A stretch of DNA of 64,000 nt from assembly GCA_037045245.1 (NCBI GenBank), contig JBAOHR010000009.1, positions 75,241 through 139,240 of the forward strand. Direction: 5' to 3'. Below, one piece after another: positions 39,613 through 59,591 of the stretch (positions are counted from its first letter, which is position 1; each line of letters opens with the position of its first letter). The translations under genes and the position numbers were made by a program. Under the pieces are notes generated by a model that saw only the letters and a program-made list of their open reading frames with translations, did not search any database and had not been told where the DNA came from. The stretch is from Gemmatimonadales bacterium (GTDB lineage: Bacteria; Gemmatimonadota; Gemmatimonadetes; Gemmatimonadales; GWC2-71-9).

Positions 39613-39613
39613 C

Positions 39614-42658: not shown

Positions 42659-42659
42659 A

Positions 42660-43235
42660 TCAGTAGTGGCACACGGTGCAATCGCGCGAAACCTTCCGCT
42701 CGATGTGACAGCTGATGCAGAAGCCCATGTTGTTCACGTTGTTCACCTTGTAGACCTGCGGCATGCGCGCGACGTTGCCGTGGCAGGTGGCGCAGGCGTT
42801 CGCCCCGAGCGCCTTGATGTGGCGCTGGTGCGGGAAGTGGACGTGGCGGGCGAGCTCGTGCACGCGCGTCCACTCCACCGGGAGCTTCTTGCTCCAGGCG
42901 TCCTTGAGCTTCTTGATCTCGACCTGGTTTTCCTTGGTCTTGCCGTTCACGGCGATGTGGCAGCCCATGCAGGTCTGCATGCTCGGGATGCCCGGCTCCG
43001 ACGAGACGCCCACCGAGTAGTGGCAGTACTGGCACTGCATCTTCAGCATGCCGGCATGCACGTCGTGTCGGAAGAGGATCGGCTGCTTCGGACCCTTGAG
43101 CCCCGCCGAGTCGGAGGCCGTGAGGGCCGCGACGGTGGGAAGGGTCGCCTTCTGCGCGCTGACGGGCGAGACGAGCGCCAAGGCGCCCACCGCCGCCATC
43201 GCCGCACCGAGTCCAAGGAAGAACCGCTTGTGCAT
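42660..43235 (-). CDS. actA: Alternative complex III subunit ActA (pentahaem cytochrome c)
   Basis: ORF 42660..43364, with the start at ATG 43235 (MHKRFFLGLGAAMAAVGALALV). It has five CxxCH motifs: CQYCH, CMGCH, CATCH, CISCH and CTVCH. Confidence 0.85.
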   Translation of the reverse strand: MHKRFFLGLGAAMAAVGALALVSPVSAQKATLPTVAALTASDSAGLKGPKQPILFRHDVHAGMLKMQCQYCHYSVGVSSEPGIPSMQTCMGCHIAVNGKTKENQVEIKKLKDAWSKKLPVEWTRVHELARHVHFPHQRHIKALGANACATCHGNVARMPQVYKVNNVNNMGFCISCHIERKVSRDCTVCHY

Positions 43236-43265
43236 AGTCGCTGACCGCCGAAGAGGATCCGACTT

Positions 43266-43281
43266 TGTGAAAGATTTCACG
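43266..43281. promoter_or_regulatory. CRP/FNR-family-type palindrome upstream of actA
   Basis: TGTGA AAGATT TCACG matches the TGTGA-N6-TCACA consensus at 9 of 10 positions. It is centred 38-39 nt upstream of the actA ATG, and no Shine-Dalgarno motif lies in between. Confidence 0.45.
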
Positions 43282-43299
43282 ATCGAGGTCCTGCAATAG

Positions 43300-43324
43300 G
43301 AAGGGGTCGAACGACGACCCCTTC
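43300..43324 (-). terminator. Hairpin downstream of the trmJ-like gene / upstream of the act operon
   Basis: GAAGGGGTCG aacga CGACCCCTTC: a 10-bp perfect stem with a 5-nt loop, 41 nt after the stop at 43365. The U tract is weak (CUAUU on the minus strand). Confidence 0.55.
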
Positions 43325-43364
43325 TGCCGGGCGCAAAGTTAGCGGAGGACCCCCCTCCGTTCAA

Positions 43365-44207
43365 CTACGGTCGGTCCGGCGATGGAGCGGGGTCGAGGGC
43401 GGTACCCGGCGCCTCCGCCGGGGTTCCGGGAGGAGCGTCGCGTTCCCGGGGCGGCAGGAGCCCGGCCCGGCGCATGTAGTGGCCGACCTCGAGGCCGATG
43501 GCCCGGAAGAGGGTGGCCTCCCGGCCGTCGGGATCGGCCCGGTAGATCAGTTCCCGGAAGCCGCGCATGACCAGCTCCGGATCGCGCTTCTTGAAGAACT
43601 GGATCGCGGTCAGGGCCCCCTCCCAGTCGTGGAAGAGCGCCTCCATCTGTTCGTGGGTGGCCGGCCCGGCGGCATGCCGCGGCGCCTTCAGCGGAATCGT
43701 GTCACCTCCGCGCGCCACCCAGAGCTCATGGGCCATCACCGCCCACGCCTGCGCCAGGTTCAGCGACGAGTAGTCGGGGTTGGCCGAGATGGTGACCAGC
43801 TGCGCACAGCGATCGAGCTCCTCGTTCTGGAGGCCGTGCGCCTCGCGCCCGGCGAGGATGCCGACCCGGCCGACCCGCGAGCGCTCCACCAGCTCGGCCG
43901 CGGCTTCGCGCGGGCGGAGGGTGGTGCGCTTGGCGGTGCGCTCGCGCCCGGTCAGGGCCACGACGTGCGTCAGGTCGGCGAACGCCTCGTCGAGCGAATC
44001 GTGGATCGTCATCCGCTCGAGCAAGTCGGCGGTGTTGTGCGCGACCCCTTCGATGCGATAGTGATCGATCGGGCACTCGGGCTGCACCAGCCGCACGTCC
44101 ATCACGCCGAAGTTCTTCGCGATGCGAATGCACGACGCGAGATTCACGAGATCCTGGATCGCGACCAGGATCAAGACTGGCGGTTCGCCCTGCAGCTGGT
44201 CGGTCAT
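43365..44207 (-). CDS. SpoU/TrmH-class RNA 2'-O-methyltransferase (TrmJ-like)
   Basis: Intact 280-aa ORF. The SPOUT motifs are VLILVAIQDLVNLASCIRIAKNFG, VGILAGREAHGLQNEE and LVTISANPDYSSLNLAQAWAVMAHEL. Confidence 0.75.
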   Translation of the reverse strand: MTDQLQGEPPVLILVAIQDLVNLASCIRIAKNFGVMDVRLVQPECPIDHYRIEGVAHNTADLLERMTIHDSLDEAFADLTHVVALTGRERTAKRTTLRPREAAAELVERSRVGRVGILAGREAHGLQNEELDRCAQLVTISANPDYSSLNLAQAWAVMAHELWVARGGDTIPLKAPRHAAGPATHEQMEALFHDWEGALTAIQFFKKRDPELVMRGFRELIYRADPDGREATLFRAIGLEVGHYMRRAGLLPPRERDAPPGTPAEAPGTALDPAPSPDRP

Positions 44208-45097
44208 CCGCGGAGCAGCACGCCCGCCGCCGCTTCGGCCGCGCGGATCGGGTCGAGGTAGTCCGCCTGTTCACCGAGCGAGGCGCGGAGGCCGCGATAC
44301 TCCTCGCGCACCGAGCTGAGCACCGGGGCCGCCACGCCCACCTCGCGCGCCAGCGCCTCGGCGATGCCGATGTCCTTCTCCAGCAGCGCGAGCCGGAAGA
44401 GCTGCGGATAGAGACCGGTGAGCACGCGTTCGGGAATCAGCACTTCGCTGACCAGCGAGCGACCGCTCGAGGCGTTGAGGACGTCGATCGCGGCGCGCGG
44501 ATCGATCCCCGCCTTGGCGAGCGTGACCATCCCCTCGCCCAGCGCGAGAATGTGCACCGCGAGCAGCGCGTTGTTCACGGCCTTCATCGCATGCCCCGCC
44601 CCGACCGGTCCGAGGTGCACGACCTTCCCCGCGAACGGGGCGACGACCTCCTCGGCCCGCGCGACGTCCTCCGCCGTGCCACCGCACATGATCGTCAACG
44701 CCCCCTTGGCGGCGAGCGGCGGGCCGCCACTCACCGGCGCGTCGACGAAGGCGATCCCCCGCTCCGCCAGCCGCGCCGCGATCACCCGCGAGGTGGCCGG
44801 ATCGCCGGAGGTGCAGTCGACCAGGATCGCGCCCTCCGCGAGGCCGGCGAGGAGCCCGTCCGGCCCCTCCAGCAGCGCCGCGACGTCGCCCGAGGTGGGG
44901 AGGCAGGTGATCACCGCCTCCTTCCCCTCCGCGAGCTCGCGCGGGGTTCCCGCCACGGCGGCCCCCGGGTGGTCCGCCGCGAAGGCCCCGGCCTTGGCCG
45001 CCGTCCGGTTCCAGACGACCAGCCCCTCGCGGGCGGCGCAGCGGGCGGCCATCGGGGTGCCGATGGCCCCCAGGCCGGCGAATCCGATCTTCATCAC
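44204..45097 (-). CDS. NAD(P)-dependent oxidoreductase, 3-hydroxyisobutyrate / 6-phosphogluconate dehydrogenase-like family
   Basis: Intact 297-aa ORF. MKIGFAGLGAIGTPMA is the Rossmann motif. It continues ...FVDAPVSGGPPLAAKGALTIMCGG... and ...GAGHAMKAVNNAL..., typical of the HIBADH family. Confidence 0.8.
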   Translation of the reverse strand: MMKIGFAGLGAIGTPMAARCAAREGLVVWNRTAAKAGAFAADHPGAAVAGTPRELAEGKEAVITCLPTSGDVAALLEGPDGLLAGLAEGAILVDCTSGDPATSRVIAARLAERGIAFVDAPVSGGPPLAAKGALTIMCGGTAEDVARAEEVVAPFAGKVVHLGPVGAGHAMKAVNNALLAVHILALGEGMVTLAKAGIDPRAAIDVLNASSGRSLVSEVLIPERVLTGLYPQLFRLALLEKDIGIAEALAREVGVAAPVLSSVREEYRGLRASLGEQADYLDPIRAAEAAAGVLLRG

Positions 45098-45132
45098 GAC
45101 TCCAGTGGTGCGGGACCGCTAGAATCTAGGGG

Positions 45133-46350
45133 ATGTCCACCCGGATCCTGCATTGCGATCTCGACGCCTTCTTCGTCGAGGTCTGCCGCCGCCACGACCC
45201 CGCCCTCGAGGGCGTCGACCTGCTGATCGTCGGCGGCCGACGGCAGTCGCGCGGCGTGGTGCAATCGGCCTCGTACGGGGCGCGCGCGTTCGGCGTGCGG
45301 AGCGGCATGCCGATCGCCGAGGCCGCGCGGCGCTGCCCGGGGGCGACGTTCGTAAAGGGGGAGTTCGCGTGGTACAAGGAGGCGTCGCGCGCGGTGCGCG
45401 CCGTCCTCGAGCGGCATGCCCCGCTGGTCGTGATGACCGGAATGGACGAGGGCTACCTCGACTTCACCGGCACCGACCTCCTGCATCCGGTCTCGCTGCT
45501 GGATGTCGCGACCCAGATCCGCCGCGACGTCCGCGCCGACGCGAACCTCGACTGCTCGATCGGCATCGGCCCGAACCGGATGCTCGCGAAACTCGCATCC
45601 GACTACGCCAAGCCGCGCGGCATCTGCGAGGTGCGTGGTGGCTGGGAGCGCGGCTTCCTCGCGGGATTGCCGTTGAAGGCGTTGCCGGGGATCGGCCCCA
45701 AGACCGCGGATCGGCTGGCGGCGCGCGGCCTCAACGACGTGGCGCAAGTGCAGGTGATGCCGCTGGACGAGCTCGGCGCGCTGCTCGGACGCGAGGAGGC
45801 GATCGCGCTCAAGAGACGCGCCGACGGCGCCGGCGGCAGCATCGTCCGCGCGTCCGGGCCGCCGAAGTCGATTTCGCGCGAGACCACCTTTCCGCGCGAC
45901 GTCACCGACGCCGCAGCGCTCGACCGCATGCTCCACCTGCTGACCGCACGCGTCGCGGGTCAACTGCGAGACGAAGCGCTGCAGGCCGGGGCGGTCGTGC
46001 TCAAGCTGCGCCACAGCGACTTCACCACGGTGACGCGACGGACCACGCTCACCTCGCCGACCGCCATCGATGGCGAACTGATGGCGGCGGCGCGGCGGCT
46101 GCTCACGCCGGCCCTCGCCACCGCGCGCGGGAAGCGGCAGGGCGTCCGCCTGCTCGGGATCGCCGCCACCGCCCTCGGACAGGCCGAGGCGCCGGACCTC
46201 TTCGAGCCCGAGGCACGCGGCAAGGCGCGCGAGGTGTCGCGGGCCGTCGACGCGGTGCGGGCGCGGTTCGGCTTCGAGGCGATGCAGGCCGCCCGGCTCG
46301 TGGGCCGCCCCGACCCGCGGCGCGCCGAGCCCGACGGGGACGCCGACTAG
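45133..46350 (+). CDS. dinB: DNA polymerase IV (Y-family translesion polymerase)
   Basis: Intact 405-aa ORF: MSTRILHCDLDAFFVEVCRRHDP...VVQSASYGARAFGVRSGMPIAEAARRCP...MDEGYLDFTG...IGIGPNRMLAKLASDYAKP...LPGIGPKTADRL. Confidence 0.92.
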   Translation: MSTRILHCDLDAFFVEVCRRHDPALEGVDLLIVGGRRQSRGVVQSASYGARAFGVRSGMPIAEAARRCPGATFVKGEFAWYKEASRAVRAVLERHAPLVVMTGMDEGYLDFTGTDLLHPVSLLDVATQIRRDVRADANLDCSIGIGPNRMLAKLASDYAKPRGICEVRGGWERGFLAGLPLKALPGIGPKTADRLAARGLNDVAQVQVMPLDELGALLGREEAIALKRRADGAGGSIVRASGPPKSISRETTFPRDVTDAAALDRMLHLLTARVAGQLRDEALQAGAVVLKLRHSDFTTVTRRTTLTSPTAIDGELMAAARRLLTPALATARGKRQGVRLLGIAATALGQAEAPDLFEPEARGKAREVSRAVDAVRARFGFEAMQAARLVGRPDPRRAEPDGDAD

Positions 46351-46384
46351 ATTTCCGGCCGGACACTTCTTTCTGGAGTACTGC

Positions 46385-46771
46385 ATGGCGACCGCCGAAG
46401 GCCGCACCATTCCATTCACGGGACCCGAGGCCATCGATGTGGCCGTCCTCGAGACCTTTCCGTATCAGGGCCCCGATCAGCAGATCGTGACCACCACCGA
46501 CGAGTTCTCGGCGGTCTGTCCGTTCAGTGGGCTGCCGGATATCGCGAAGCTCACGCTCGAATACGTGCCCAGCGATGCCTGCATCGAGCTCAAGAGCCTC
46601 AAGTACTACATGATGAGCTATCGCAATGTGGGGATCTTCCAGGAGCACGCCACCGCGCGCTTCGCCGAAGACCTGCAGCGCGTGCTCAAGGCGAAGCGCC
46701 TCTCGGTCACGACCGTCTACAACGTCCGCGGCGGCTTCCTCACGACCTGCACGGTGGCGCTCCCGGCGTAA
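46385..46771 (+). CDS. queF: NADPH-dependent 7-cyano-7-deazaguanine (preQ0) reductase, unimodular type
   Basis: Intact 128-aa ORF: ...TTTDEFSAVCPFSGLPDIAKLTLEYVPSDACIELKSLKYYMMSYRNVGIFQEHATARFAEDL. It carries the catalytic Cys and the QueF motif E(S/L)K(S/A)hK(L/Y)(Y/F/W). Confidence 0.9.
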   Translation: MATAEGRTIPFTGPEAIDVAVLETFPYQGPDQQIVTTTDEFSAVCPFSGLPDIAKLTLEYVPSDACIELKSLKYYMMSYRNVGIFQEHATARFAEDLQRVLKAKRLSVTTVYNVRGGFLTTCTVALPA

Positions 46772-46873
46772 GCTGGCCGCTTGCCGGTTCCGGTACCGGG
46801 CTGCATCCTCAACGTGGCGTCATTCCCACGTCCTGCTCCGTGACGCCACCCCCGGACCGGAGAGCTCCCCACG

Positions 46874-47332
46874 ATGCGTACTCCCCTGCTCTGCACCATC
46901 CTCCTGGCGGCCTGCGCGGGCGGCGAGAAGGCCCCCGCGACTGGCGACTCGACCCCACCCGCTGCCCCGGCGCCACCGCCGGCGCTGACCGCAGCCCAGG
47001 TGACCGGCAGCTGGAGCGGCACCTCCAAGCTGGCCGGGACCGACTCGGTGGTCAGCACGTGGACCGCCACCACGACCAGTGACAGCACCGGCGTCTTCGC
47101 CGAGCCGGGGCAGAAGGACGTCAAGTACACGACGGTTCTCTCGGGCGACAGCATGATCGTGACCTCCGAGCCCCACGTGGCCCCGATGATGGGAAAAGCG
47201 AAGGTCATGTGGGTGTCTGTTGGCCGGCTCGATGCCAGCGGGGCCCTCGTGGGCACCGGCGTGACGATGCTGGCCGAGAAGCACGACTCGGTGCTCGGAC
47301 GCGTTACCTGGTCGGCGACCAAGAAGCCCTGA
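46874..47332 (+). CDS. Small lipoprotein, unknown function
   Basis: Intact 152-aa ORF with a lipobox (LLCTILLAACAGG) and a Pro/Ala linker. I recognise no domain. Confidence 0.6.
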   Translation: MRTPLLCTILLAACAGGEKAPATGDSTPPAAPAPPPALTAAQVTGSWSGTSKLAGTDSVVSTWTATTTSDSTGVFAEPGQKDVKYTTVLSGDSMIVTSEPHVAPMMGKAKVMWVSVGRLDASGALVGTGVTMLAEKHDSVLGRVTWSATKKP

Positions 47333-47348
47333 AGCATTCTGGAACGTG

Positions 47349-47389
47349 AACGGCGGCCCCCCACTCCGATGAGTGGGGGCCGCCGTTTT
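47349..47389 (+). terminator. Rho-independent terminator
   Basis: AACGGCGGCCCCCCACT ccgatg AGTGGGGGCCGCCGTT followed by TTTG: a 16-bp GC-rich stem (one bulged C) with a short U tract, 17 nt after the lipoprotein stop. The left flank (GGAACGTGAACGG) resembles the GTGAACG heptads at 55245. Confidence 0.8.
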
Positions 47390-47432
47390 GTCAGGCGCTG
47401 GACGCACGATTCTTGCGAATGCAGGCGGCGTC

Positions 47433-49394
47433 ATGGCCCTCTCCCCCGAATTCATCGCCCTCCAGGAATCCCTCCTCGGCCGCTATTCGCTCGAGCGCGA
47501 GCTCGGTCGGGGCGGCATGGGGACGGTCTATCTGGCGCGAGACGTGAAGCTCGACCGCCCCGTGGCCATCAAGTTCCTGCACGCCGAGCTCGCCGCTGAC
47601 ACCGCGGCCCGCTCCCGCTTCCTGCACGAGGCCCGGACCGCCGCGCGGCTCGCCCACCCCCATGTCGTGCCGATCTTCGCCGTCGAGGCCGAGGGATCCC
47701 GACCGTTCCTGGTGATGGCGCTGATCGATGGCGAGACGCTGGGGGCCCGACTCCGCCGGCGCGGGGCACTCGGCCCCGACGAGGGGGAGCGGTTGCTGCG
47801 CGAGATGGCGTGGGCTCTCGGCTATGCGCACGCGCAGGGTGTCATCCACCGCGACCTCACGCTCGAGAACGTCCTCATCGAGCGCGACTCGGGGCGGGTG
47901 CTACTGGCCGACTTCGGCCTCGCGACCGCGCGCGAGACGGTCGAGTCGCAGCCGCGGTTCGGCACGCCGGGCTACCTGGCCCCTGAAGTGATTCGCGGCG
48001 AACCGGCAACGACCTCGAGCGATCTCTACGCCCTCGGCGTGGTGACCTGGCACGCGCTCGCCGGACGGGCACCGTTCGAGGCCGACACCGCCGGCGCGCT
48101 CCTCGCCAAGCACCTCGTGCAGCAGGCGCCATCGCTCGCGCCGCTGGCGCGCGGTGCCTCGCGACGGCTGGTCGCTGCGGTGGAGCAGTGCCTGGCGAAG
48201 GACGCCGAGGCTCGACCCGCCGACGCCGCGGCATTGCTCGCCCTGCTCGAGCGCGCGCCGGAACCGGTGGCGATCGCACCGGCATTGCGGCACTGGTTCA
48301 CCCGATGGGAACGGTTCCGGCCCGTCTACGCGCTGGCCACCCCGATCCTCGCGCTGCAGACCTGGCTGCTCTTCCTCAGCGCATCAGAGTTTGCGTCGCG
48401 AAGTCTGCTCGTCGCCGCGGTCGTCTCGGCGGTACTCACCGTGACGGCCATTCCGCTGCTGGCGCACCTCGCCTTCGAGACCCTCGCCCTGCGCGAGTTG
48501 CACCGCGTCGGCTTCGGCATCGCCGACATCCGCGCGGCGTATCCGCACTGGCGTGACACGCTCCTGCGCGAGCGCCGGCAGGAGGGACTTCCGCCGCTCC
48601 CCGGGCGCGTCGTCCTCGACCTTACCGTGATCGGTGCCGTGGTGCTCGCGCTCTTCATGTTCGTCTGGTACCCCAACGCCGACCGCTGGTATGATGCCAA
48701 CGGACATGCGTTCTATATCAAGAACCTCCTGATCGAGACGTCGACCAGCCTCTACCCAGCCGTCCTGATCGGCGTCGGGATCGGCTTCGCCTCACCCGGC
48801 TTCCGGATCGCGCCGAACGGCCGCTTCCGCCAGCTGGTCGAGCGCTTCTGGCAGTCGCGCCTCGCGGCCGGGATCACGAAGCTCGCGTCGCTGTGGCAGC
48901 CGCAGCGTGTCCTCGCCGCGTCGACGCTCCATCGCAACACCGAACTCGTCCTCGGGCTCGCGGTCGACGATCTCTGGCACGCCATCCCCGCCGCGCTCCG
49001 CGAGGGACTCGGCGATGTCCCCGCCCTGGCGCACACGCTGCAGGCGAGTGCCGGGGAGCTGCGCGACATTGCCGACCACCTCCGCGAGAGCGAGCGCGAT
49101 ACCGACCACGACGAGGCAGAGCAGCGGCGACTGATCGCGTCGCGCGAAGCGGTGGAATCGCGGCATCGCGAGGCAGTCGCCACGCTCGAGCGGTTGCGCC
49201 TGCAACTGCTCCGGCTCGTGGCCTCGAAGGAGCAGAGCCAGGAACTCACCGCCCACCTCGCGGGCGCGCGTGCCCTGGAGCAGTCGCTGCTGGTCGACCT
49301 CGCCGCGCACAACGAAGTGCGGGTGCTGCTCGGCCGCCCGGTGCGCCGCCCTGACACCGGCTCGAGCCCGACGCCGACCCCCAGGGCCGCGTGA
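47433..49394 (+). CDS. Membrane Ser/Thr protein kinase, paralogue 1 (Hanks-type kinase + about 4 TM + conserved unknown C-terminal helical domain)
   Basis: ORF 47373..49394, with the start moved to ATG 47433 because the upstream part lies inside the terminator. Kinase motifs: LGRGGMGTVYLA, VAIKFL, HEARTAA, HRDLTLENVLI, LADFGLA, GYLAPEV, DLYALGVV. TM helices follow (ALATPILALQTWLLFL, LVAAVVSAVLTVTAIPLLA, VLDLTVIGAVVLALFMFVW, LYPAVLIGVGIGF). The C-terminal blocks are LHRNTELVLGLAVDDLWHAIP and LERLRLQLLRL. Confidence 0.88.
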   Translation: MALSPEFIALQESLLGRYSLERELGRGGMGTVYLARDVKLDRPVAIKFLHAELAADTAARSRFLHEARTAARLAHPHVVPIFAVEAEGSRPFLVMALIDGETLGARLRRRGALGPDEGERLLREMAWALGYAHAQGVIHRDLTLENVLIERDSGRVLLADFGLATARETVESQPRFGTPGYLAPEVIRGEPATTSSDLYALGVVTWHALAGRAPFEADTAGALLAKHLVQQAPSLAPLARGASRRLVAAVEQCLAKDAEARPADAAALLALLERAPEPVAIAPALRHWFTRWERFRPVYALATPILALQTWLLFLSASEFASRSLLVAAVVSAVLTVTAIPLLAHLAFETLALRELHRVGFGIADIRAAYPHWRDTLLRERRQEGLPPLPGRVVLDLTVIGAVVLALFMFVWYPNADRWYDANGHAFYIKNLLIETSTSLYPAVLIGVGIGFASPGFRIAPNGRFRQLVERFWQSRLAAGITKLASLWQPQRVLAASTLHRNTELVLGLAVDDLWHAIPAALREGLGDVPALAHTLQASAGELRDIADHLRESERDTDHDEAEQRRLIASREAVESRHREAVATLERLRLQLLRLVASKEQSQELTAHLAGARALEQSLLVDLAAHNEVRVLLGRPVRRPDTGSSPTPTPRAA

Positions 49395-51340
49395 CGACTC
49401 CCGCCGACGACACGCGCGCGTTCGAGCGGCTGCAGGAGTCGCTGGCCGGCACCTGGTCGATCGAGCGGGAGCTCGGCCGCGGCGGCATGGGCACGGTCTA
49501 TCTGGCTCGCGACGTGGCGCTCGACCGGCCGGTCGCGCTGAAGGTGCTGCACCCTTTACTGGCGGCTGATCCGGAGCAGCGCGAGCGTTTCCTCCGCGAG
49601 GCGCGCACCGGGGCCAGGCTCTCGCATCCGCACATCGTCCCGATCTATGCCGTCGAGGCGCACGACGACCTCGTCTACTTCGTGATGGGACTGATCGATG
49701 GCGAAAGCGTCGGCGATCGACTCCGCCGCGAGGGACCGTTGCGCGGCGAGGACGCCGAACGGATCCTGCGCGAGGTCGCCTGGGCGCTTGCGTATGCCCA
49801 CGCGATGGGGATCGTCCACCGCGACGTCACCATCGAGAACATCCTGCTCGAGCGGCAGACCGGCCGGGCCGTCCTCGCCGACTTCGGCATCGCCGCCGCC
49901 GTCGATCGTGACGGCGAGGAGCCGTTGCTCGGCACGCCATCGTACATCGCCCCCGAGGTGATCCAGGGCGCCCAGGCCACCGCCGCGAGCGACCTCTACG
50001 CGCTCGGCATCACCGGCTGGACGATGCTGGTCGGGCACACGCCGTTCATGGCCGACGACACGCCGGCGCTGCTCCTCAAGCAGCTGACCGAGCCGGTACC
50101 GCCGCTGGTCCGCGCGGCGCCGGGTACGTCTTCACGACTCGCGCGCGCACTCGAGGCGGCAATGGCGAAGGACCCCGCCGAACGCCCGGATGGCGCCCAG
50201 GGGTACCTCGCGCTGCTTGCCGGCGACGGGGAGAGCGTGGCGCTGGCCGAGCCACTCCGCCGCTGGCTGAACCGCTTCGAACTCGTCCGTCCGTTCTACG
50301 CCCTCGGGATGACGGTGATGGCGTTCACGACGTTCATGGCAATCGGAATCCGCCTGAATTCTGAGGCCCTCGCGGCTCCTTTCATCGCAATTGCCATTCT
50401 CGCGAGTCCGGTCCTCGTCTCCCTCGGCCTCATCCACTTGGGAATCGAACTGACGGCATTGCGGCGCCTCGCCCGCGCTGGCTACACGCACGGCGACCTG
50501 GTGCAAGCGGTGCAGCGGGCGCGGCAGGCCGCCCAGCGCGTCGGCCCACGTCGCCCCTCGTTGCTCGGTCGCGTCGTCCATGACATCGCCTGCCTCGGCG
50601 GCATCATCACCGTGCTGCTGATGGCCGGGCTGGCCGAGCTGCTGCTCCCCTACTCGCCGGACCGCCAGGGCTGGCGTCACCTCGGACAGTTCCTCCATCT
50701 CCTGCAGACCACCAGCCAGTACGCCTATCTCGTCTTCCTGTCAGGCCTCGGCTTCAACTTCCTGGTCCCCGCCTTTCACTTCAAACCCAATGGGCTCTGG
50801 GCCAGGCTTCGTGACGGCTTCTGGCGCTCGGCGCTGGGCGCCGGGATGCTCAAGCTGGCCTCGTTCGGGCTCGGCAAGTCCGAGGCGACCGACCGCACCT
50901 TGCACCGCCCCACCGAGCTGGTGCTCGACCTCGCGATCGAGGAGATGTGGCGGGCGCTGCCGCCAAGCGCGCGCGAAGGGACGTCGGACCTCCCGAAGAT
51001 CGCGCGCGCACTGAGCGACCGCGTGGCCGAGGCGCGCGAGCTGCGCGCCGCGTTGCAGGGGCCGCGGGTGCGCCGCTCGGCCGAGGCCGATGCGCTCGAT
51101 GCACGCCTCGCGACGAGGCAGGAACGTGCCGTGATCGCACTCGAGCGACTGCGCATGGTGCTCGGCCGGGTCGGTGGCGCAGCCGCGATGAGCGGAGAGC
51201 TCACCGCTAAGCTGCACGACGCCCGTGCCCTGGAGCAGGAGCTGCTGCTCGAACTCGGTGCCCATGCGGAGGTCAAGCGGCTGCTGCGGCAAGGGCGGGC
51301 GCCGAGCAAGAGCCTCACGCCGAAGGCGACGCCGGCGTGA
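49391..51340 (+). CDS. Membrane Ser/Thr protein kinase, paralogue 2
   Basis: Intact 649-aa ORF. The GTG start overlaps the paralogue 1 stop (GTGA). The layout is the same: LGRGGMGTVYLA, VALKVL, HRDVTIENILL, LADFGIA, SYIAPEV, TM region, LHRPTELVLDLAIEEMWRALP, LERLRMVL, LTAKLHDARALEQELLLELGAHAEVKRLL. Confidence 0.88.
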   Translation: MTTPADDTRAFERLQESLAGTWSIERELGRGGMGTVYLARDVALDRPVALKVLHPLLAADPEQRERFLREARTGARLSHPHIVPIYAVEAHDDLVYFVMGLIDGESVGDRLRREGPLRGEDAERILREVAWALAYAHAMGIVHRDVTIENILLERQTGRAVLADFGIAAAVDRDGEEPLLGTPSYIAPEVIQGAQATAASDLYALGITGWTMLVGHTPFMADDTPALLLKQLTEPVPPLVRAAPGTSSRLARALEAAMAKDPAERPDGAQGYLALLAGDGESVALAEPLRRWLNRFELVRPFYALGMTVMAFTTFMAIGIRLNSEALAAPFIAIAILASPVLVSLGLIHLGIELTALRRLARAGYTHGDLVQAVQRARQAAQRVGPRRPSLLGRVVHDIACLGGIITVLLMAGLAELLLPYSPDRQGWRHLGQFLHLLQTTSQYAYLVFLSGLGFNFLVPAFHFKPNGLWARLRDGFWRSALGAGMLKLASFGLGKSEATDRTLHRPTELVLDLAIEEMWRALPPSAREGTSDLPKIARALSDRVAEARELRAALQGPRVRRSAEADALDARLATRQERAVIALERLRMVLGRVGGAAAMSGELTAKLHDARALEQELLLELGAHAEVKRLLRQGRAPSKSLTPKATPA

Positions 51341-53328
51341 CGGCGCGCGCCGAATTCATCGCGCTGCAGCAGGCGCTCCTCGGCCGCTACTCGCTCGAGC
51401 GGGAGCTTGGCCGCGGCGGGATGGGGACGGTCTACCTGGCGCGCGACCTCCGCCTCGAGCGACCGGTCGCGATCAAGGCACTGCACCCGGCACTCGCCGC
51501 CGACCCCGAGGCGTGCGCGCGCTTCCTGCGCGAGGCACGCACCGCCGCCGGGCTGGCCCACCCGCACATCGTGCCGATCTACTCCGTCGAGGAATCCGAC
51601 GCGGCACCGCTGCTGGTGATGGCCATGATCGATGGCGAGACGCTCGGCGCGAGGCTCCGGAGCCGCGGACCGCTCCCCGCCGACGACGCCGCGCGCGTCC
51701 TCCGCGAGATCGCCTGGGCGCTCGACCACGCCCACGCCCACGGCGTCGTGCACCGCGACCTCACGGTCGACAACATCCTGCTGGAGCGCCACACCGGCCG
51801 CGCGCTGCTCGGCGACTTCGGACTCGCCCAGCGCAGCGACACCATCGACGTGGGGCCGGTGTTCGGCACGCCGGGCTACCTGGCCCCCGAACTGATCCGT
51901 GGCGATGCGGCCACGCCGGCCAGCGATCTCTACGCCCTCGGCGTCGTCGGCTGGGCAACGCTTACCGGCAAGCTTCCCTTCGCGGGCGATGCCTCGGCGG
52001 TGCTTGCGAGGCACCTGATGCAACCCGCCCCGGCCCTGGCCCCGCTCGCGCACGGGGCGTCGCCGCGGCTGGTGGCGGGCATCATGCAGTGCCTGGCAAA
52101 GGACCCCGATGCGCGCCCTGCGAGTGCCACCGCGTTCCTCGGGCTCGCTCGAGCGCGCACCGGAGCCGATCGCGATTGCGGCACCGCTCCGAGGGGTGGT
52201 TCACTCGTTGGGAGCGGATCGCGCCGATCTACTCAATCGTCGACGCCGTTGCTCGCGCTTGCCAGACCTCGCTGCTGACCTACGCGCTACTACCGGACGG
52301 TGGACCAGCGCATTCTCGTCGCGATGATGGTCAGCACCGCGCTGTCGCTCTCTCTGCGATCCCCCTCGCCGCCCACCTGCTGTTCGAGTTCGTCGCAGCT
52401 CGCGGCGTCTTGCGCGGCCGAAGGATTCACGTTGGCGGACGTTCGGGCAGCGCTTCCCGCACTGGCGCGCCGACCGAGCGCCTCCTCCAGGAGCGGGAGG
52501 GGCTGCGACCGCTCGCGAGCCGGGTGATCCTCGACTTGACCGTGGTCTTCGCCATCACGATCCTGGTCGACATCCTCGATCATCGAGCCGAACATCGGCC
52601 TGCTTGAAGTCACGTCTCGGAGGCGGTCCGCACCTGGGTGCTCGGCCTCACCGGCTTCATGCCCGACGCTCTACCTCTTCACGATGATCGGCGTCGGCGT
52701 CGGCTTCGTCTCACCCGGCTTCCGGATTCCTGCGCAGGGGCGGGCGCGCCGGCTTCCTCGACCGGCTCTGGAGCTCGCTCGGTGGCCCAGCGCTTCGCCG
52801 GCGCTTGCCGGGCGAGGCCAGCGTACCCTCGCCGCGAACGCGTCGACGCTGCATCGCCCCACCGAAATGGTGCTCGGCCTGGCGGTCGACGATCTCTGGC
52901 GCGCCATCCCCGAGGCCCTCCGCGCCGACCTCGGCGACGTCCCGGCGCTGGCGCACACGCTCGAACAGGGCGCAACGGAGTTGCGCGGGCTGATCACGTC
53001 GCTGCAGGAGAGCGAGGCGAGCGATGGCGTCGCGGATGCCGATCGCGCGGCGATCGTCGAGACGCGCCTCGGCCTCGAGAGCGCGGCACCGCGAGACGAT
53101 CGCCACCCTCGGAGCGGGTGCGGCTGCAACTGCTGCGGCTGCTCGCCGACCGCCAGCAAACGGGCGCGCTCACGCAGCAACTCGAGGCCGCGAGAGCCAT
53201 CGAGGCGTCGCTCCACCGCGACGTCGCGGGGCACGCCGAGGTGCGCCGGCTGCTGCATCGGCCGCGGCGTGCCTGCCGCCCCGGGGACGCCGACGCCCAC
53301 GCCGCCGTCGGAGCGCGCCGCCGCATGA
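51337..53328 (+). pseudogene. Membrane Ser/Thr protein kinase, paralogue 3; reading frame broken at least 7 times as written
   Basis: The kinase domain is intact in ORF 51337..52278 up to ...ASATAFLGL. After that the homologous sequence hops between frames. ERAPEPIAIAAPLRG lies in ORF 52109. WFTRWERIAPIYS...AIPLAAHLLFEF...LASRVILDLTVVFAITILV lies in ORF 51225..52607. AEGFTLADVRAALP lies in ORF 52300. GVGVGFVSPGFRI...LHRPTEMVLGLAVDDLWRAIP lies in ORF 52684. ERVRLQLLRLLADRQQTGALTQQLEAARAIEASL lies in ORF 52638. The tail ...TPTPTPPSERAAA is back in ORF 52684. The stop overlaps the paralogue 4 start (ATGA). Confidence 0.8.
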
Positions 53329-55239
53329 GCACCACCACCGCCCACGACGACGACTTCCTCGCGCTGCAGGATGCGCTGGCCGGGCAATGGTCGCTCGAGC
53401 GCGAGCTCGGGCGGGGCGGGATGGCGACGGTGTACCTGGCGCGCGACGTCTCGCTTGATCGACCGGTTGCTATCAAGGTGCTCGCCACCGAGCATGCGGC
53501 CGACCCGGCGATGCGGGCCCGCTTCGAACGCGAGGCGATCACCAGCGCGCGGTCTCTCGCACCCGCACATCGTGCCGACGTACGCGGTTGCCGAGGCGGC
53601 GGGGCGGCCGTACCTCGTGATGGGCTACATCGACGGCGAGTCGCTGGCGCAGCGGCTGCATCGCGCCGGGCCGTTGCCGGGTGCCGAGGGTGAGCGCGTC
53701 ATCCGGGAGGTCGCCTGGGCGCTCGGGCACGCGCATGCCACCGGCGTGCTGCATCGTGACGTCACGCTCGACAACATCCTGCTCGAACGGAGCACCGGCC
53801 GCGCGGTGCTGGTGGACTTCGGCATCGCCGCGCTGGTCGATGGCGACGGCGATGGCACCCTCCTCGGGACGCCGGCGTATCTGGCGCCCGGAAGTCATTC
53901 AGGGTGAGCCGGCGTCGCGGGCGAGTGACCTCTACGCCCTGGCCACGGTGGCGTGGGCCACCTTTGCCGGGCGGCTCCCCTACCATGGCGAGGACAGCGC
54001 CGCCGTGCTGCTCCAGCAGGTGACGGCCTCGGTGCCGTCGCTCGCGGCCGCGGCACCCGGGGTGCCCCGCCGGATCGTCGCGGCTATCGAGGGAGCGCTC
54101 GCCAAGGCTCCAGTGGAGCGCCCCACGACGGTGGAGGCGTGGATCGGTTCGTGGGAGGGGCATCAGGTGGCAGTGCCTCTCGCAGCGCCACTGGAGCGCT
54201 GGCGCGGGCATTGGAGGCAGGTACGGACGTTTTATGCATTCGCCGCGACGATTACCGCCATGTTCGGGGGAATGGCGGGTGGAGCCGGGGGTTACACCGA
54301 CAACATCGCCCTCTGGATGGCGTACCTACTCATGTTCGCGGTGCCGGGCTTAGTGGTGGCAGCAGCGATCCACGTCGCGATGGCCGCCAACCAGCTCCGA
54401 CGCCTTGCACGATCAGGGTTCGGCATTGAGGATCTTCGACTGACCCTCCGTCGTGCCGATCCGGAATCGTCGCGGACCCCCGTCCCACTGGTGGGCCGGC
54501 TCACCTCGGACGCGGTCGTGATCTCCCTGATTGTCTATCTCGCCATGGCCGTCCATGAGTCCGCCTGGAACCGGACTGGCGGTATGACTGGCTGATTCAG
54601 GACTTCTATCGTGAAGTGGCGAGGTGGGCCTTCGTCGGATTCTGGACGGGCCTTGGGCTCTCGGTGCTGACCCCGACCCGCCCGATGCTCCGCCCCGGCA
54701 CACGCGAGGGGATCCGGCGCGCATTCTGGAACTCCCCGCTCGGCGCGCTCTGGTTCGGCCTGGCGCGGGTCGGGCTCGGCAAGCGGATCGCCGCCGCCGA
54801 GACACTGCACCGCCCGACCGAGCTGGTGCTCGACCTCGCCATCGAGGAGCTGTGGCGCGCCCTGCCGGCCGGCGCGCGCCGGGAGGCGGCCGAGCTGCCG
54901 TCGGTGGCGCGGGACCTCCGCCGCCGGGTGGCCTCGTTGCGCGCCATTGCGGGCCACTTCGGCGACCCGAGTCGCGACTCGCCCGCCGAGGCGGCGCTGC
55001 GGGCGAAGGTGAGTGGGCGCATCACCGCCGCGCTCACGGCGCTCGAGCAGCTCCGGCTTCAGCTCCTGCGGCTCGACGACGCGACGCTGCCGACGGGGGC
55101 CCTCACCGCGCAGCTGCATGACGCCCGCGCGCTGGAGCGGGAGCTGCTGACGGACCTCGGCGCGCACCACGGGATCGGGCGGTTGCTGCGGCGCGGCCCG
55201 GTGCGGCGGTCGCCGGGGATGACGCCGACGCCGGCGTAG
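53325..55239 (+). pseudogene. Membrane Ser/Thr protein kinase, paralogue 4; frame broken at least 3 times as written
   Basis: The N-terminus lies in the frame of ORF 52638 (MSTTTAHDDDFLALQDALAGQWSLERELGRGGMATVYLARDVSLDRPVAIKVL). ORF 53371 follows (LSHPHIVPTYAV...HRDVTLDNILLERSTGRAVLVDFGIA...TPAYLAP), then ORF 53681 (EVIQGEPASRASDLYALATVAW...TM region). ORF 54616 carries the rest (ARWAFVGFWTGLG...LHRPTELVLDLAIEELWRALP...LEQLRLQLLRL...LTAQLHDARALERELLTDLGAHHGIGRLL...TPTPA). Breaks are near 53555, 53890 and 54570. Confidence 0.8.
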
Positions 55240-55244
55240 GAACT

Positions 55245-55361
55245 GGTGAACGGTGAACGGGGAACGGGTGCGAAAGCGGTGAGACGTGAGACGTGAGACG
55301 TGCCCACCCCTGACCTCCGTTTCACGCCTTACGTTTCACCGCATACCGTTCACCGTTCACC
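55245..55361. repeat. Nested heptad-periodic palindrome (GGTGAAC outer arms, GTGAGAC/GTTTCAC inner arms) between convergent genes
   Basis: The outer arms, GGTGAACGGTGAACGG (55245-55260) / CCGTTCACCGTTCACC (55346-55361), form a perfect 16-bp pairing. The inner arms are GTGAGAC x3 (55279-55299) and GTTTCAC GCCTTAC GTTTCAC (55319-55339), complementary only with G-U pairs in the plus-strand RNA. The element starts 6 nt after the kinase-4 stop and ends 12 nt before the phytase-like stop (55373-55375). Confidence 0.85.
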
Positions 55362-55372
55362 CTTCCCCGCCC

Positions 55373-56564
55373 CTACTTCACCGTGCAGTCACTCCGCACC
55401 CCGGTCGCCTTCGCGATCGCCTCCCACGAGATCGCCGCGACGCCACCATCATCATGCACCGCGAAGAGGGCGCCCGGCCGGGAAGCCCGGGAGGGCGCGC
55501 TGCGTCAGCGCGATGCCGTCGGTGTTCTTGATGGTCGGTGACCCGAAGGCGCCGACGTGCGCCAGCGTCTTCCGATCGAAGAGGTGATAGGTGTTGATGA
55601 CCTTCCCCTGATCGGTGGCGACCCAGTAGCCGGCGCTGTCGCCGCAGGCATAGAGGACGATCCCTTCCGCCTGGTTGGGGAAGAAGCGCCGCGGCACCGT
55701 GTCGCCGGTGAAGCGGCCGGCGAGGGTGTAGCGCTTCAGCTGTGACGCCCCTTCCAGCTCCTCCGCGATCAGCAGCTGGTCGTTGGCCGGGTCGGCCATG
55801 ATCGACTCGACCACGCGCAGCACCCCCGGCGCCGTGACGTATCCCCGAAGGTGCGCAGCAAGCGTTGCCGTGGCGCGCCCGCGCTCCACGACGACCTGAT
55901 ACTCCCGCACCCGCCGCCCGAGCGCACTGTCGGGTGGCACCGAGTCCTTCACCAGCTCATAGCTGTCGGTGATCCAGCTCCGGTAGCGCCCGGCCCCCTG
56001 GTCGGCGATGGTGACGCCGTACGGCTTCATCAGGTCGCGCTCGCCGTAAGCTGCCGAGCGGCGTGAACTCCGGACAGCTGCAGTACCTGCACGCGCCGAC
56101 CGTCGCGCTCGACGACCCACAAGCAGATCGCCCGCGCACCGCGAGGCCATTCGGCCGCTCGAACTGCCCCGGCCCGCGTCCCGTGCCGTCCCGACGTCCC
56201 GCAGCCACTTGCCGGTGGCGGCCTCGTGCACGCGAATCAGGTTGCCCGCCTTGGCCGAGACGAGCAGCCACGCTTCACCATTCGGTCCGTGCCAGATCGC
56301 CGGCGAATCGATGTCCATCAACGTGTCGCGGACCGTCTGCCACGCCTCGCTGCACCTGCTGCCGCGACTCGGCAGCGCTGTCCGTTGTGGTCCGCGGCAG
56401 GCGGCGGCGTTGGCGGGACGGCCGCAGGCCGAGACGAGCAGGAGGAGCACCAGCAGGAGTCGACACGCAACGACGAAGGGGCCACGACGCGACCTCGCAC
56501 GGAAAGGAAGGAAGAGCGGATCGGCGACGAATCTTCGCGGTCCCGATGTCACGAACGGCTTCAC
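55373..56564 (-). pseudogene. Beta-propeller phytase-like (3-phytase / BPP domain) lipoprotein; several frame breaks as written
   Basis: ORF 55452..56564 has a lipobox (LLLVLLLLVSACG) and DIDSPAIWHGPNGEAWLLVSAKAGNLIRVHEAATGKWLRDVG, the classic BPP DDPAIW...GL.VYDL pattern. A middle segment, GPGQFERPNGLAV...PEFTPLGS, lies in ORF 55957..56271. The sequence then continues ERDLMKPYGVTIADQGAGRYRSWITDSYE...NQAEGIVLYACGDSAGYWVATDQ...TDGIALTQ. My own translation places the true C-terminus, GALFAVHDDGGVAAISWEAIAKATGVRSDCTVK, in a third frame ending at TAG 55375-55373. Confidence 0.65.
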
Positions 56565-56691
56565 AGGATCAGCCGATGGTCGTGACCGGAATGGGACAGG
56601 TGCCGCACCGCAACCCGTGACAGCCGCGGAGAGAACATCTGCGCGGTCGTATTCCGCACACCATGACCACCTTCGCCTCAGGATCCGTCAC

Positions 56692-59485
56692 ATGCCGCTT
56701 GCCGGTCTGTCCCGCGCCCTCCGCTGGGCCGCGCTGCTCACTGCTTCCTCCCCGCGGCCGCGCATGGCGCAGGGCGCCGTCGCGGGCACCGTCGTCGACG
56801 ACGCGTCCGGCATCGCGCTGACCGGCGTGGTGGTCCGCGTCGAGGGCAGCCACGCGCGAGGTGCTGACAGACCGCACCGGCCGATTCCTCCTCACCGGCC
56901 TCCCGACCGGCCGCCAGGAAATCGTCACGCGCTACATCGGCTATGCCGTGGCGCGCGCCACGGTCGTGGTCGAGAGCGGGCGCACTGCCACCACCATCTT
57001 CCGCCTGCGGTCGGTCACGACCGACCTCGGCACCCTCGTGGTCACCGCCACGCGGAGCGGCCAGGCCTCGGCGCTCAACCAGCAGCAGAACGCCGCCAAC
57101 GTGACCAACGTCGTCGCCGCCGACCAGATCGGTCGCTTCCCGGACGCCAACATCGGCGACGCGCTGAAGCGCATCCCGGGCATCACCGTTGCGATCGACC
57201 AGGGCGAGGCCCGCTTCGGCTCGATCCGCGGCACCGAGCCGCGCTTCAATTCGGTGATGGTCAACGGCGAGCGCGTGCCCTCGGCCGAGGCGGAGGTGCG
57301 CCAGGTGCAGCTCGACCTGATTCCGGCGGACATGGTGCAGGCGGTCGAGGTGAACAAGTCGCTCACGCCGGAGATGGATGCCGACGCGATCGGTGGGGCC
57401 GTCAACATCGTGACGCGGGCCGCTCCCGCCGGCTTCCGCCTCTCGACCACGCTCGGCTCCGGCTACAACTGGATCCGCAACGAGCCGGTCCTGCTCGGCT
57501 CCGCCATCATCGGCACGCGCTTCCTCAACGACCGCCTCGGCGTCATCGCGAGCGGCTCGTACTACGACCAGCAATACGGCTCCGACAACAAGGAAGGGGT
57601 CTGGGACAAGAGCGGCACCGGCGCGGTGTACATGACCCAGTTCGACGTCCGCCGCTATGACATCCAGCGGATCCGCAAGTCGGTCTCCGGCTCGGTGGAC
57701 TACCGGTTCGACGCAGGCAACACGGTGATGTTCCGCGCGATCTACAACAACCGCAACGACTGGGAGAACCGCTTCCGCGCCCGCTACGCCTTTGGCGCAC
57801 CGAACGCGAGCGGCGTCCAGAACACCGAGATCCGCCGGCAGACGAAGGGCGGCGGCCCGGCCGACCGCCTCAAGGATGCGCGGCTGGAGGATCAGCGCAC
57901 CCAGAGCTACCAGCTCTCGGGCGAGCACCTCTTCGGCCGCCGGGGCCAGCTCAGCTGGTCGGCGTCGACGGCGAAGGCCTCCGAGAGCCGCCCGGATGAG
58001 CGCTACATCGACTGGCGCGTGCGGAACATCGCCTACACGGCCGACTATTCGGACGAACAGACGCCCCAGTTCGCGCCCGTCAATCCCGCGCTGGTGACCC
58101 CGGACCGCTACACCTTCCGGCGGATCGAGCAGTTGGAGAGCTTCACCGAGGATCGCGACCGCAACGGGCGCCTGGACCTCCGGCTGCCGCTGGTGGATGG
58201 CGATCGGGGCACCACGCTGAAGGTGGGCGCGCGGTACCGCGACAAGGAGAACCTCCGCGACAACAGCTACAATTTTGCGGCACCCGTCACGGGGAGCGCC
58301 TTTGCCAACCTGACGCTCAAGGGCAATGCCGACTTCACGACCGATCGGAACTACGCCGGCAACTATCAGTACGGTGTCTTCACGACGCCGGCCCAGCTGG
58401 CCGCGCTTGACCTCTTCAACGCCTCGCAGTTCACGCTGACCGACCAGCCGGCGGAGTACGCGGCAGGCAACTTCACCGCCACCGAGACCATCACCGCCGG
58501 CTACGCCCAGGTCGAGCAGCGCCTCGGCGCGGCGGTGTCGCTGATCGGCGGGGCCCGCGTGGAACGGACCAAGGTGGACTACCGCGGCTTCGAGTTCAAC
58601 GTGGACGACGAGACGGTCTCGCCCACCAGCGGCGGCCAGTCCTACACCGATGTGCTCCCCAGCGTGAACCTGCGCTGGCAGGCCGCGCCGAGCACCGTCG
58701 TCCGTGCCGCCTGGACGAACTCGCTGGCTCGGCCGAACTACTATGACCTCGTCCCGTACCGCTCCGTCTCGCTCGACGACGACGAGCTCTCGACCGGCAA
58801 CCCCGACCTCAAGCCGACCCGGGCGATGAACCTCGACCTGACCGCGGAGCGCTACTTCGCCTCCGTCGGCCTCCTGTCCGGCGGGATCTTCCACAAGCAG
58901 ATCGACGACTTCATCTACAACTTCACCGCGTTCAATGAAGTGGACGCGGTCACCGGGCGGACCTTCGCCCAGATCTCCCGGCCCCGGAACGGCGCCAAGG
59001 CGCGCCTCACCGGCGCCGAAGTCGCCGTGCAGCGCCAGCTGGACTTCCTTCCCGGCATGCTGAAGGGGCTGGGGATCTACCTCAACTACACCTACACCGA
59101 TTCGAAGGTGGAGGGGCTCGACATCGCCGGCCGGGAGAACGAGAAGCTGCCGCTCCTCGGCACCGCGAAGCACAGCGCGAACGCCTCCCTCTCCTACGAC
59201 GGCAGCCGGCTCTCCTTCCGCGTGGCGCTCAACTACCAGAGCGAATCGCTCGACGCCGGCGAGGGCGGGTACAATGAGGATGCCTTCTTCGACCGCTGGG
59301 CGGACCGGCGGACCGACATCGATGCCAACGCCTCGTTCGCGCTGACCCCGAAGGCGCGGTTCTTCGTCGAGGCGAACAACCTCAACAACCGCCCGCTCCG
59401 CTACTACCAGGGCACCCGCGGCCGCCTGGCCCAGGACGAGTTCTACGGCCGGCGCGTGCAGACGGGGTTGAAGATCGACTTCTAG
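56692..59485 (+). pseudogene. TonB-dependent receptor with N-terminal carboxypeptidase-regulatory-like domain; one frame break as written
   Basis: The signal peptide and start of the CarbopepD_reg domain lie in the frame of ORF 56209 (MPLAGLSRALRWAALL...GAVAGTVVDDASGIALTGVVVRVEGSHA). The rest lies in ORF 56861..59485 (VLTDRTGRFLLTGLPTGRQEIVTRYIGYA...TonB box/plug LGTLVVTATRSG...FPDANIGDALKRIPGITV...GSIRGTEPRFNSVMVNGERVPSAE...). The barrel ends RRVQTGLKIDF with the terminal Phe. The break is near 56855. Confidence 0.88.
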
Positions 59486-59494
59486 CGGCAAGGC

Positions 59495-59558
59495 GGTGAA
59501 ACGTGAAAGGTGAAACGGGCGCCCAGGGCTGGGCACGTTTCACCTTTCACGCTTCACG
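59495..59558. repeat. Heptad-periodic palindrome, GTGAAAC/GTGAAAG type, copy 1 (after the TonB-dependent receptor)
   Basis: GGTGAAACGTGAAAGGTGAAACG (59495-59517) pairs with CGTTTCACCTTTCACGCTTCACG (59536-59558) at 21 of 23 positions. The 18-nt spacer itself folds (GCCCAG gg CTGGGC, 59521-59534). Confidence 0.9.
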
Positions 59559-59563
59559 CCGTA

Positions 59564-59591
59564 CACAGGCCACAGGTCACTGGTCACTGGT
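59564..59591. repeat. Unpaired tandem heptads CACAGGC CACAGGT CACTGGT CACTGGT
   Basis: Four consecutive 7-nt units lie directly after copy 1 of the palindrome. I found no inverted partner within 200 nt. The minus strand reads ACCAGTG ACCAGTG ACCTGTG GCCTGTG, with TGA spanning the unit boundaries in the first two. Confidence 0.8.

Follow-up and report, generated by a model that had tools for sequence, protein, structure and literature searches.

Tandem pairs of membrane Ser/Thr kinases with an undescribed C-terminal module and no catalytic-loop lysine in Gemmatimonadales

Bacterial Hanks-type Ser/Thr kinases are understood mostly through single-pass receptors with extracellular sensor domains. 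PknA and PknB of Mycobacterium and Corynebacterium are single-pass proteins, with extracellular PASTA repeats in PknB, and have no common C-terminal module. Here, we describe a locus encoding 4 membrane kinases, K1 to K4, in a 64,000-nucleotide (nt) stretch of a Gemmatimonadales bacterium (GenBank assembly GCA_037045245.1, contig JBAOHR010000009.1, positions 75,241 to 139,240 of the forward strand), which we call the window and number from its first nucleotide. The kinases are of 2 types, A (K1 and K3) and B (K2 and K4), and each is predicted to consist of a cytoplasmic kinase domain, 2 transmembrane (TM) hairpins, a cytoplasmic four-helix bundle with the motif TLHRxTE, and a Thr/Pro (TP) tail. 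As with PknA and PknB, adjacent genes on the same strand encode membrane Ser/Thr kinases of the eukaryotic protein kinase (ePK) fold with cytoplasmic N-terminal kinase domains, whereas here both partners have 4 TM helices, both ends in the cytoplasm, a common helical domain, an HRDxTxxN catalytic loop, and no PASTA repeats.

Two further systems offer functional analogies. The intramembrane-sensing histidine kinases LiaS, BceS, and DesK likewise combine TM hairpins that have negligible extracytoplasmic loops with cytoplasmic helical bundles, a likeness that would imply that sensing takes place in or at the membrane, or else by way of partner proteins, but they differ in chemistry and fold (HisKA/HATPase rather than Ser/Thr kinase). 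The type I and type II TGF-beta receptors are likewise 2 paralogous membrane Ser/Thr kinases, and A and B would resemble them in acting as one signaling unit, possibly with trans-phosphorylation of a conserved Thr motif in the juxtamembrane or helical region; unlike them, the kinases described here lack a ligand-binding ectodomain. None of the 3 analogies involves homology beyond the kinase fold. What is new in this family is that the C-terminal module is undescribed, that A and B look like an obligate pair, and that the catalytic loop lacks its Lys; the function we infer. We are highly confident of the descriptive account, that is, the architecture, the AB-AB orthology, the conservation, the selection on the genes, the exchange of Lys for Thr, and the artefactual frame breaks in K3 and K4. 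The whole statement, that the locus holds 2 tandem copies of an order-wide A/B pair forming hetero-oligomeric kinases, we judge to be evenly balanced.

Open reading frame (ORF) listing and translation place the 4 Hanks-type kinase genes on one strand between positions 47433 and 55239, in a window of approximately 70% G+C. K1 (A-type; 47433–49394, plus strand) encodes 653 amino acids (aa) from an ATG start and is intact, with a kinase domain at approximately 47484–48221, the catalytic loop HRDLTLEN at 47847–47870, 4 TM helices at approximately 48324–48788, a helical bundle at approximately 48924–49328 with the motif TLHRNTELV at approximately 48927, and then the TP tail. The likewise intact K2 (B-type; 49391–51340, plus strand; 649 aa) starts with a GTG lying within the K1 stop (GTGA) and has its catalytic loop, HRDVTIEN, at 49817 and its C-terminal motif at 50900. 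The 2 products are identical to the metagenome-assembled genome (MAG) proteins MEI2720710.1 (K1) and MEI2720711.1 (K2) at NCBI, which are encoded on a contig of 227 kb. K3 (A-type; 51337–53328, plus strand; catalytic loop HRDLTVDN at 51751, C-terminal motif at 52849) overlaps K2 by GTGA, and K4 (B-type; 53325–55239, plus strand; catalytic loop HRDVTLDN at 53752, C-terminal motif at 54805) overlaps K3 by ATGA; both need frame switches to be read through. The 3 junctions, GTGA, GTGA, and ATGA in order, are identical in 2 related contigs, and Shine–Dalgarno-like GGAG, GAAGG, and AGGG motifs lie 8–15 nt 5' of the junction starts. The array thus stands as the initial annotation had described it, with 4 same-strand paralogues joined by 4-nt overlaps and with a kinase domain, 4 TM helices, a helical C-terminal domain of approximately 170 aa, and a Thr/Pro tail in each; the conserved blocks quoted there (TLHRxTELVL.LA...W.A.P, LE.LRLQLLRL, and LT..L..AR.LE) are also present and partly invariant.

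The kinase domains belong to the Hanks-type superfamily but lack one of its signature residues. The Pfam Pkinase model (PF00069) matches K1 at aa 18–263 and K2 at aa 23–266 (expect value [E] of approximately 1e-46; 157 and 160 bits, cutoff 31.7), and the best NCBIfam match of the kinase domain is a PknB/Stk1 model, with weak Bud32 model matches on the kinase core. K1–K4 are not PASTA kinases: the PASTA kinase model NF033483 scores 255 and 251 bits (cutoff 450) and aligns only over model positions 4–268, which correspond to the kinase domain, and Pfam found no PASTA repeats in K1 or K2. The G-loop, the VAIK Lys, the alpha-C Glu, the HRD Asp, the catalytic Asn, DFG, and APE are at least 90% conserved in both A and B types and are present in K1, K2, and the corrected K3 and K4 (see below). 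The catalytic-loop Lys of HRDxKxxN is absent, all 4 window genes encoding HRD(L/V/I)T(L/I/P)(E/D/A)N. In ePKs, this Lys contacts the gamma-phosphate, Tyr kinases having a nearby Arg instead, and DxT/SxxN loops are known in the atypical kinases Bud32 and Rio. Thr occupies the Lys position in 102 of 103 close relatives, with Ser in the remaining one; neither +2 nor +4 has a compensating Arg, and no other compensating basic residue is visible in the family. Among more distant proteins bearing the same C-terminal module, all 54 with a detectable non-Thr loop have the HRDxKPDN type, and a Thr loop recurs in 9 cluster representatives (50% identity). On this sequence evidence, the Lys-to-Thr exchange is a fixed derived trait accompanying A/B pairing. 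Since HRDxTxxN is found in both types, the A and B proteins are probably weak or atypical catalysts, perhaps reliant on their partner.

The C-terminal module corresponds to no named domain. Hydropathy indicates 4 hydrophobic segments, and the loop between TM2 and TM3 is rich in Lys and Arg and hence predicted to be cytoplasmic, which would place both the kinase and the C-terminal domains in the cytoplasm. AlphaFold2 (AF2) modeling of a 378-aa C-terminal construct from an 86-sequence alignment yielded an all-helical structure with a predicted local distance difference test (pLDDT) score of 88.1, and a second model of the soluble part alone scored 83. In construct numbering, the first TM hairpin (helices 16–45 and 48–83) is followed by a cytoplasmic helix (88–109), the second hairpin (helices 114–148 and 150–178), amphipathic helices (189–212), a low-confidence linker (217–225), 4 long helices (223–357), and, after 357, the disordered TP tail. 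The outer-face turns of the hairpins measure just 1–2 residues in the model, leaving almost no periplasmic exposure. Invariant in the close family are the juxtamembrane W13 and R16; T223, H225, R226, T228, V231, L232, L234, and W240 of the TLHRxTExVL...W block; E311 and R314 of LExxR; and A337. Searches with the C-terminal approximately 380 aa returned no match at E < 0.1 in Pfam or NCBIfam, and phmmer against PDB sequences gave none either (best E 0.57). Foldseek against the PDB found nothing significant for the full module (best E 0.79, template modeling [TM] score below 0.25) and just generic long-helix proteins for the soluble domain (best E 0.07, TM-score below 0.4); the matches to talin, ABC exporter TM domains, axonemal coiled coils, and Vipp1 are insignificant (E ≥ 0.07). 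The earlier statement that the module is not PASTA, TPR, FHA, WD40, or PQQ therefore holds across the Pfam, NCBIfam, PDB, and Foldseek searches, which gave no match to HAMP, HisKA, or any other named sensor or regulatory domain either. A reading of TLHRxTE as a HisKA-like H-box was considered and dropped because the His is replaced by Tyr, Phe, or Gln in distant members.

When 1.84 billion representatives were searched with a profile of the module that excluded the kinase domain, 735 clusters (50% identity) were retrieved at E ≤ 1e-3, of which 422 were at E ≤ 1e-10, and every member with a named source is from Gemmatimonadota. Distant members retain R-x-T-E, LGDxP, and LExxRLxLLRL, with Tyr, Phe, or Gln in place of the His of the first block. 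As judged from these matches, the module is a real, widespread, and undescribed domain family, so far known from Gemmatimonadota only; we found no description of the kinase/module family in the literature. The phylum contains a large family, of at least 735 clusters at 50% identity, in which a kinase is joined to a module of 4 TM helices and a helical bundle for which no database has a description. Among the relatives, the Gemmatimonadota proteins P0151, P0268, and P0277 resemble K1–K4 in the 4-TM and helical module with RxTE, LGDxP, and LExxRLxLLRL, fused to or adjoining a Hanks kinase domain, but differ in their canonical HRDVKPDN loop. A/B pairing was not seen at the loci of this kind examined, which are few (L031–L033); at L034, a module gene is followed by another kinase gene. 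At L031 (5054–7017), in a distant relative that has a canonical catalytic loop, a kinase ORF (326 aa) and a TM/helical module ORF (338 aa, P0151) overlap by 34 nt in different frames, and the same division occurs in L032 and L033; either the split is natural or a frameshift between TM1 and TM2 has become fixed.

An alignment of the C-terminal module served as the query for a scan of one genome from each GTDB species, which yielded 27 loci, all of them in MAGs of Gemmatimonadales or Gemmatimonadota. An apparently coupled A/B pair lies at the same chromosomal position in 20 of these loci, the other 7 being short or end-truncated contigs. Motif and ORF counts indicate 2 adjacent kinases in most loci and 4 only in the subclade of the window. 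In a neighbor-joining tree of 53 kinases, the first genes (clade A, including K1 and K3) separate cleanly from the second genes (clade B, including K2 and K4); the pairwise identities are 57.5% for K1–K3, 48.4% for K2–K4, and 41–45% across types. The junction of the A stop and the B start is ATGA or GTGA in nearly all loci, and A and B were never seen split where the contig permits a check. The pair always lies 3' of a spoU–dehydrogenase–dinB–queF block, and in pair-only genomes it is usually followed by genes for a TetR regulator, an acyl-CoA dehydrogenase (acad), a citrate synthase, and an arginine decarboxylase, giving a backbone dinB-queF-[A-B]-tetR-acad that is conserved across loci; in the window, the tetR and acad genes lie further downstream, after phytase-like and TonB-receptor genes. 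From the coupled pair in a conserved backbone together with the A/B tree, it follows that the ancestral, vertically inherited unit, as far as gene order and phylogeny tell, is the coupled A/B pair within housekeeping genes, and that the quadruplet is a duplicated pair in one subclade, arranged AB-AB. The conserved unit is therefore the pair and not the quadruplet emphasized in the initial annotation. Neither is it a strain-specific duplication, all 4 genes being intact in 5 other assemblies (L001, L002, L003, L005 plus L028, and L035).

Comparisons of 3 quadruplet genome pairs, in which synonymous sites are saturated (pS of approximately 0.5–0.6), gave ratios of nonsynonymous to synonymous differences (pN/pS) for all 4 genes of 0.10–0.17 in the kinase domain, 0.06–0.61 in the TM region, and 0.11–0.28 in the helical domain. 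These ratios show, at the level of sequence comparison, that K1–K4 are all maintained, with purifying selection in every domain and none decaying. The suggestion that the copies are more than simple redundancy fares well here: the A and B types are ancient and consistently paired, and all 4 genes are under purifying selection in 3 domains. The TM regions are the fastest-evolving part, with 23–45% identity between paralogues. Within the species, the K1 TM region (48393–48870) is dimorphic, 8 alleles of at least 90% identity forming 2 TM-cassette classes. The K1 allele of the window matches P0112 at every site of the kinase domain and differs from it at 3 sites of the helical domain and 23 of the TM region, and the synonymous divergence of the cassette (0.27–0.50) equals the between-species level. 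A K2 segment spanning the kinase C-lobe and the TM region (49871–50830) is 73.5% identical in DNA to that of assembly L002, compared with 98% in the helical domain. Such a pattern is suggestive of recombination, or of balancing selection, in the membrane segments of K1 and K2.

That K3 and K4 are frame-broken as written was correctly recognized at the outset, yet the breaks are not a property of these 2 copies. Relative to a contig of the same species, K3 has 23 insertion/deletion (indel) events and K4 has four +1 insertions. GC3 (third-position G+C) frame plots were too noisy for window-wide frameshift mapping, and we instead aligned the window to 2 contigs of the same species, L002 (Logan assembly of SRR27977617) and L035 (NCBI GCA_964575115.1). 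These are independent contigs, and over the flanking TonB-receptor gene each agrees with the window at 99–100% identity. Against both, the window has an error-laden stretch of 4.7 kb (52140–56849) with approximately 55 indel events, almost all of them single-base insertions in the window and essentially none a deletion. The insertions run through K3, K4, the palindrome downstream of K4, and a minus-strand 370-aa ORF, up to just upstream of the TonB-receptor ORF; the breaks thus belong to a stretch that also disrupts the adjoining minus-strand gene. The comparison covers window positions 37429–59456, and outside the stretch (L035-aligned 37429–52139 and 56850–59456), we found only one +3 and one +1 event, with the same result for L002 apart from the allelic K2 TM segment. 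Scoring of a sub-stretch that aligns cleanly showed that only 7 of 30 inserted bases lengthen a homopolymer run. Within K3, the 23 events fall between 52140 and 53272 and add a net 24 nt; those in K4 are at 53549, 53886, 54552, and 54558. Removal of the insertions restores a K3 of 655 aa that is 97.3% identical to the L035 orthologue and a K4 of 636 aa that is 98.1% identical to its L035 counterpart, both with zero internal stops, and the nearest relatives carry an intact 655-aa K3 gene.

An insertion-only spectrum that is blind to gene and strand borders is technical rather than evolutionary in origin, and the frame breaks in K3 and K4 are almost certainly errors of the deposited contig and not biology. 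The alternative, in which both are true pseudogenes of this strain and the second pair is decaying after duplication, would account for the broken frames in the deposited sequence. We consider it highly improbable, given that mostly non-homopolymer insertions run on through the palindrome and the opposite-strand gene, that the underlying codons are under purifying selection (pN/pS in the indel-ridden part of K3 is approximately 0.35, near the values of intact genes) with 97–98% identity to intact orthologues, and that all 5 other quadruplet assemblies are intact. In 2 Microflora Danica MAGs (L008 and L013), the A/B kinase genes likewise read as several separate ORFs, and frameshift artefacts in this kinase family may not be confined to the source assembly of the window. 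Pseudogene calls from MAG assemblies with such local error stretches call for caution.

How might the pair work? The conserved ATGA/GTGA overlap between A and B makes fixed-ratio co-translation most likely, and A and B, made in fixed proportion, would most likely use the TM and helical modules they have in common to form hetero-oligomers. Such complexes would sense a membrane-borne or cytoplasmic cue, with A and B trans-phosphorylating each other as well as substrates; the invariant Thr of RxTE and the TP tail are candidate phospho-acceptor sites. In one subclade, the pair was duplicated into 2 diverged A/B sets, all kept by selection. If the heteromer is real, bacteria would have an equivalent of the heteromeric receptor Ser/Thr kinases, and the pair would be a natural system for learning how the catalytic-loop Lys can be dispensed with. 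Several points weigh against it. The physical association of A and B is conjectural, and translational coupling is deduced from the overlaps; in 3 loci (L009, L013, and L024), a short gap replaces the 4-nt A–B overlap. No PP2C or FHA gene and no substrate were found among the flanking genes scanned, a scan that left the rest of the window outside. The Lys-less loop, moreover, would also be compatible with A and B proteins that are not protein kinases at all. A bolder version, which we rate as quite improbable, would have A and B form a receptor kinase of a new bacterial class that senses within the membrane and works only as a heteromer, with Lys-less 4-TM subunits that are competent only in the complex and trans-phosphorylate the Thr residues of RxTE and the TP tail, and with the dimorphic TM cassettes serving as a ligand- or partner-recognition surface under balancing or diversifying selection.

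Much of the same evidence can be read in other ways. A relay or cascade, in which the kinases act in sequence and form no stable complex, as proposed for other co-operonic bacterial Ser/Thr kinase pairs, would draw equally on the conserved pairing and coupling, on the retention in both types of all the listed catalytic residues from the G-loop to APE, and on the invariant RxTE Thr and TP tail as possible acceptor sites; a common membrane and helical module made by fixed-ratio co-translation suits assembly better than an amplifying cascade, and we regard the relay as unlikely. Strong divergence and fast evolution of the TM regions (23–45% identity) would be in keeping with diverged input specificity, and hence with independent paralogues, each its own homo-oligomeric sensor and overlapping in tandem only for co-regulation. 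Here the pair never seen split where this is checkable and the 4-nt overlap conserved across the order speak for a joint unit, and make independence distinctly unlikely. The Lys loss itself raises the question of whether these proteins became ATP-binding or ATPase switches or small-molecule kinases, along the lines of the Bud32/Rio comparison made above: Thr is fixed in the paired clade (102 of 103 members), module relatives not seen paired keep the Lys, and Bud32 models match weakly on the kinase core. This is very improbable in our view, as the RD arginine, DFG, APE, the GT of the P+1 loop, and all other catalytic motifs are conserved and the best family matches are PknB-type kinases. Finally, an anti-phage defense kinase system resembling PD-T4-6 or MADS might be invoked from PADLOC, whose PD-T4-6 and mad6 models match at E of 1e-60 to 1e-78, and from the within-species dimorphism of the K1 TM cassette. 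These matches are confined to the generic kinase domain (aa 12–277), and the locus is a fixed core-genome feature in a housekeeping backbone (dinB-queF...tetR-acad-citrate synthase) across the order rather than a variable island; for these reasons, a defense role is extremely improbable.

The genes flanking the array belong to the conserved backbone alone (spoU, dehydrogenase, dinB, queF, tetR, acyl-CoA dehydrogenase, citrate synthase, and arginine decarboxylase), apart from a few neighbors of the quadruplet subclade. Upstream of K1, an ORF of 152 aa (MRTPLLCTILLAAC...; 46874–47332, plus strand) encodes a predicted lipoprotein for which Pfam gave no match. It has tblastn matches in L001, L003, L004, and L006 and a weak partial match in the pair locus L023, and gene tables list a gene of 147 or 152 aa at this position in L001, L035, and L036; the remaining pair-only loci are without it, and kinase A there lies directly 3' of queF. 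The lipoprotein gene is a neighbor in the quadruplet subclade and is probably not part of the kinase system. It is followed by a GC-rich hairpin (47351–47389, plus strand; −36 kcal/mol, z = −5.8) with UUUUGU directly after, ending 44 nt ahead of the K1 start. The hairpin plus UUUUGUCAG is kept in L001, L003, and L004, where the letters of the apical stem vary and the stem is retained, and it is the probable intrinsic terminator of the lipoprotein gene, so that the clean terminator noted earlier ahead of K1 is borne out by folding and by conservation in 3 relatives. Between the hairpin and the K1 start (47390–47432), the motif GACGCACGATTCTTGC occurs; it is also present in L001 (9958–10000), L003, and L004 and is a candidate promoter or 5' untranslated region element of the kinase operon. 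A sigma-70 scan gave no match in 47390–47432.

Downstream of K4, a long imperfect palindrome (55245–55362; −73.8 kcal/mol, z = −7.7; arms 55245–55260 and 55346–55361), also reported initially and here confirmed as a strong fold, is composed of GTGAACG/GTGAGAC heptads and lies between K4 and a convergent minus-strand gene; it is probably a bidirectional terminator or a repeat element. Both hairpins are real by folding, and a simple promoter/terminator scan made no call at either of them, for the upstream one probably because its stem has a one-base bulge. The minus-strand ORF, broken by insertions in the window, encodes a phytase-like beta-propeller of 370 aa (55452–56564; PF02333 matches weakly, E = 3.7e-5, in the intact L002 orthologue). 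Together with the TonB-dependent receptor gene, it occupies 55452–59485 between K4 and tetR-acad, an arrangement seen only in the quadruplet subclade, and the 2 genes are possibly a co-acquired phosphate or phytate uptake module. Downstream of the receptor gene, tetR lies at 59500–60363 and acad extends up to 62198. The sole Rfam or ARAGORN match in the window is a tRNA-Ala (TGC) at 22175–22247 on the minus strand. A run related to the palindrome, GGTGAAAGGTGAAAGG, is found at 62251 (62251–62266), and the heptads and this run may belong to a dispersed intergenic repeat family.

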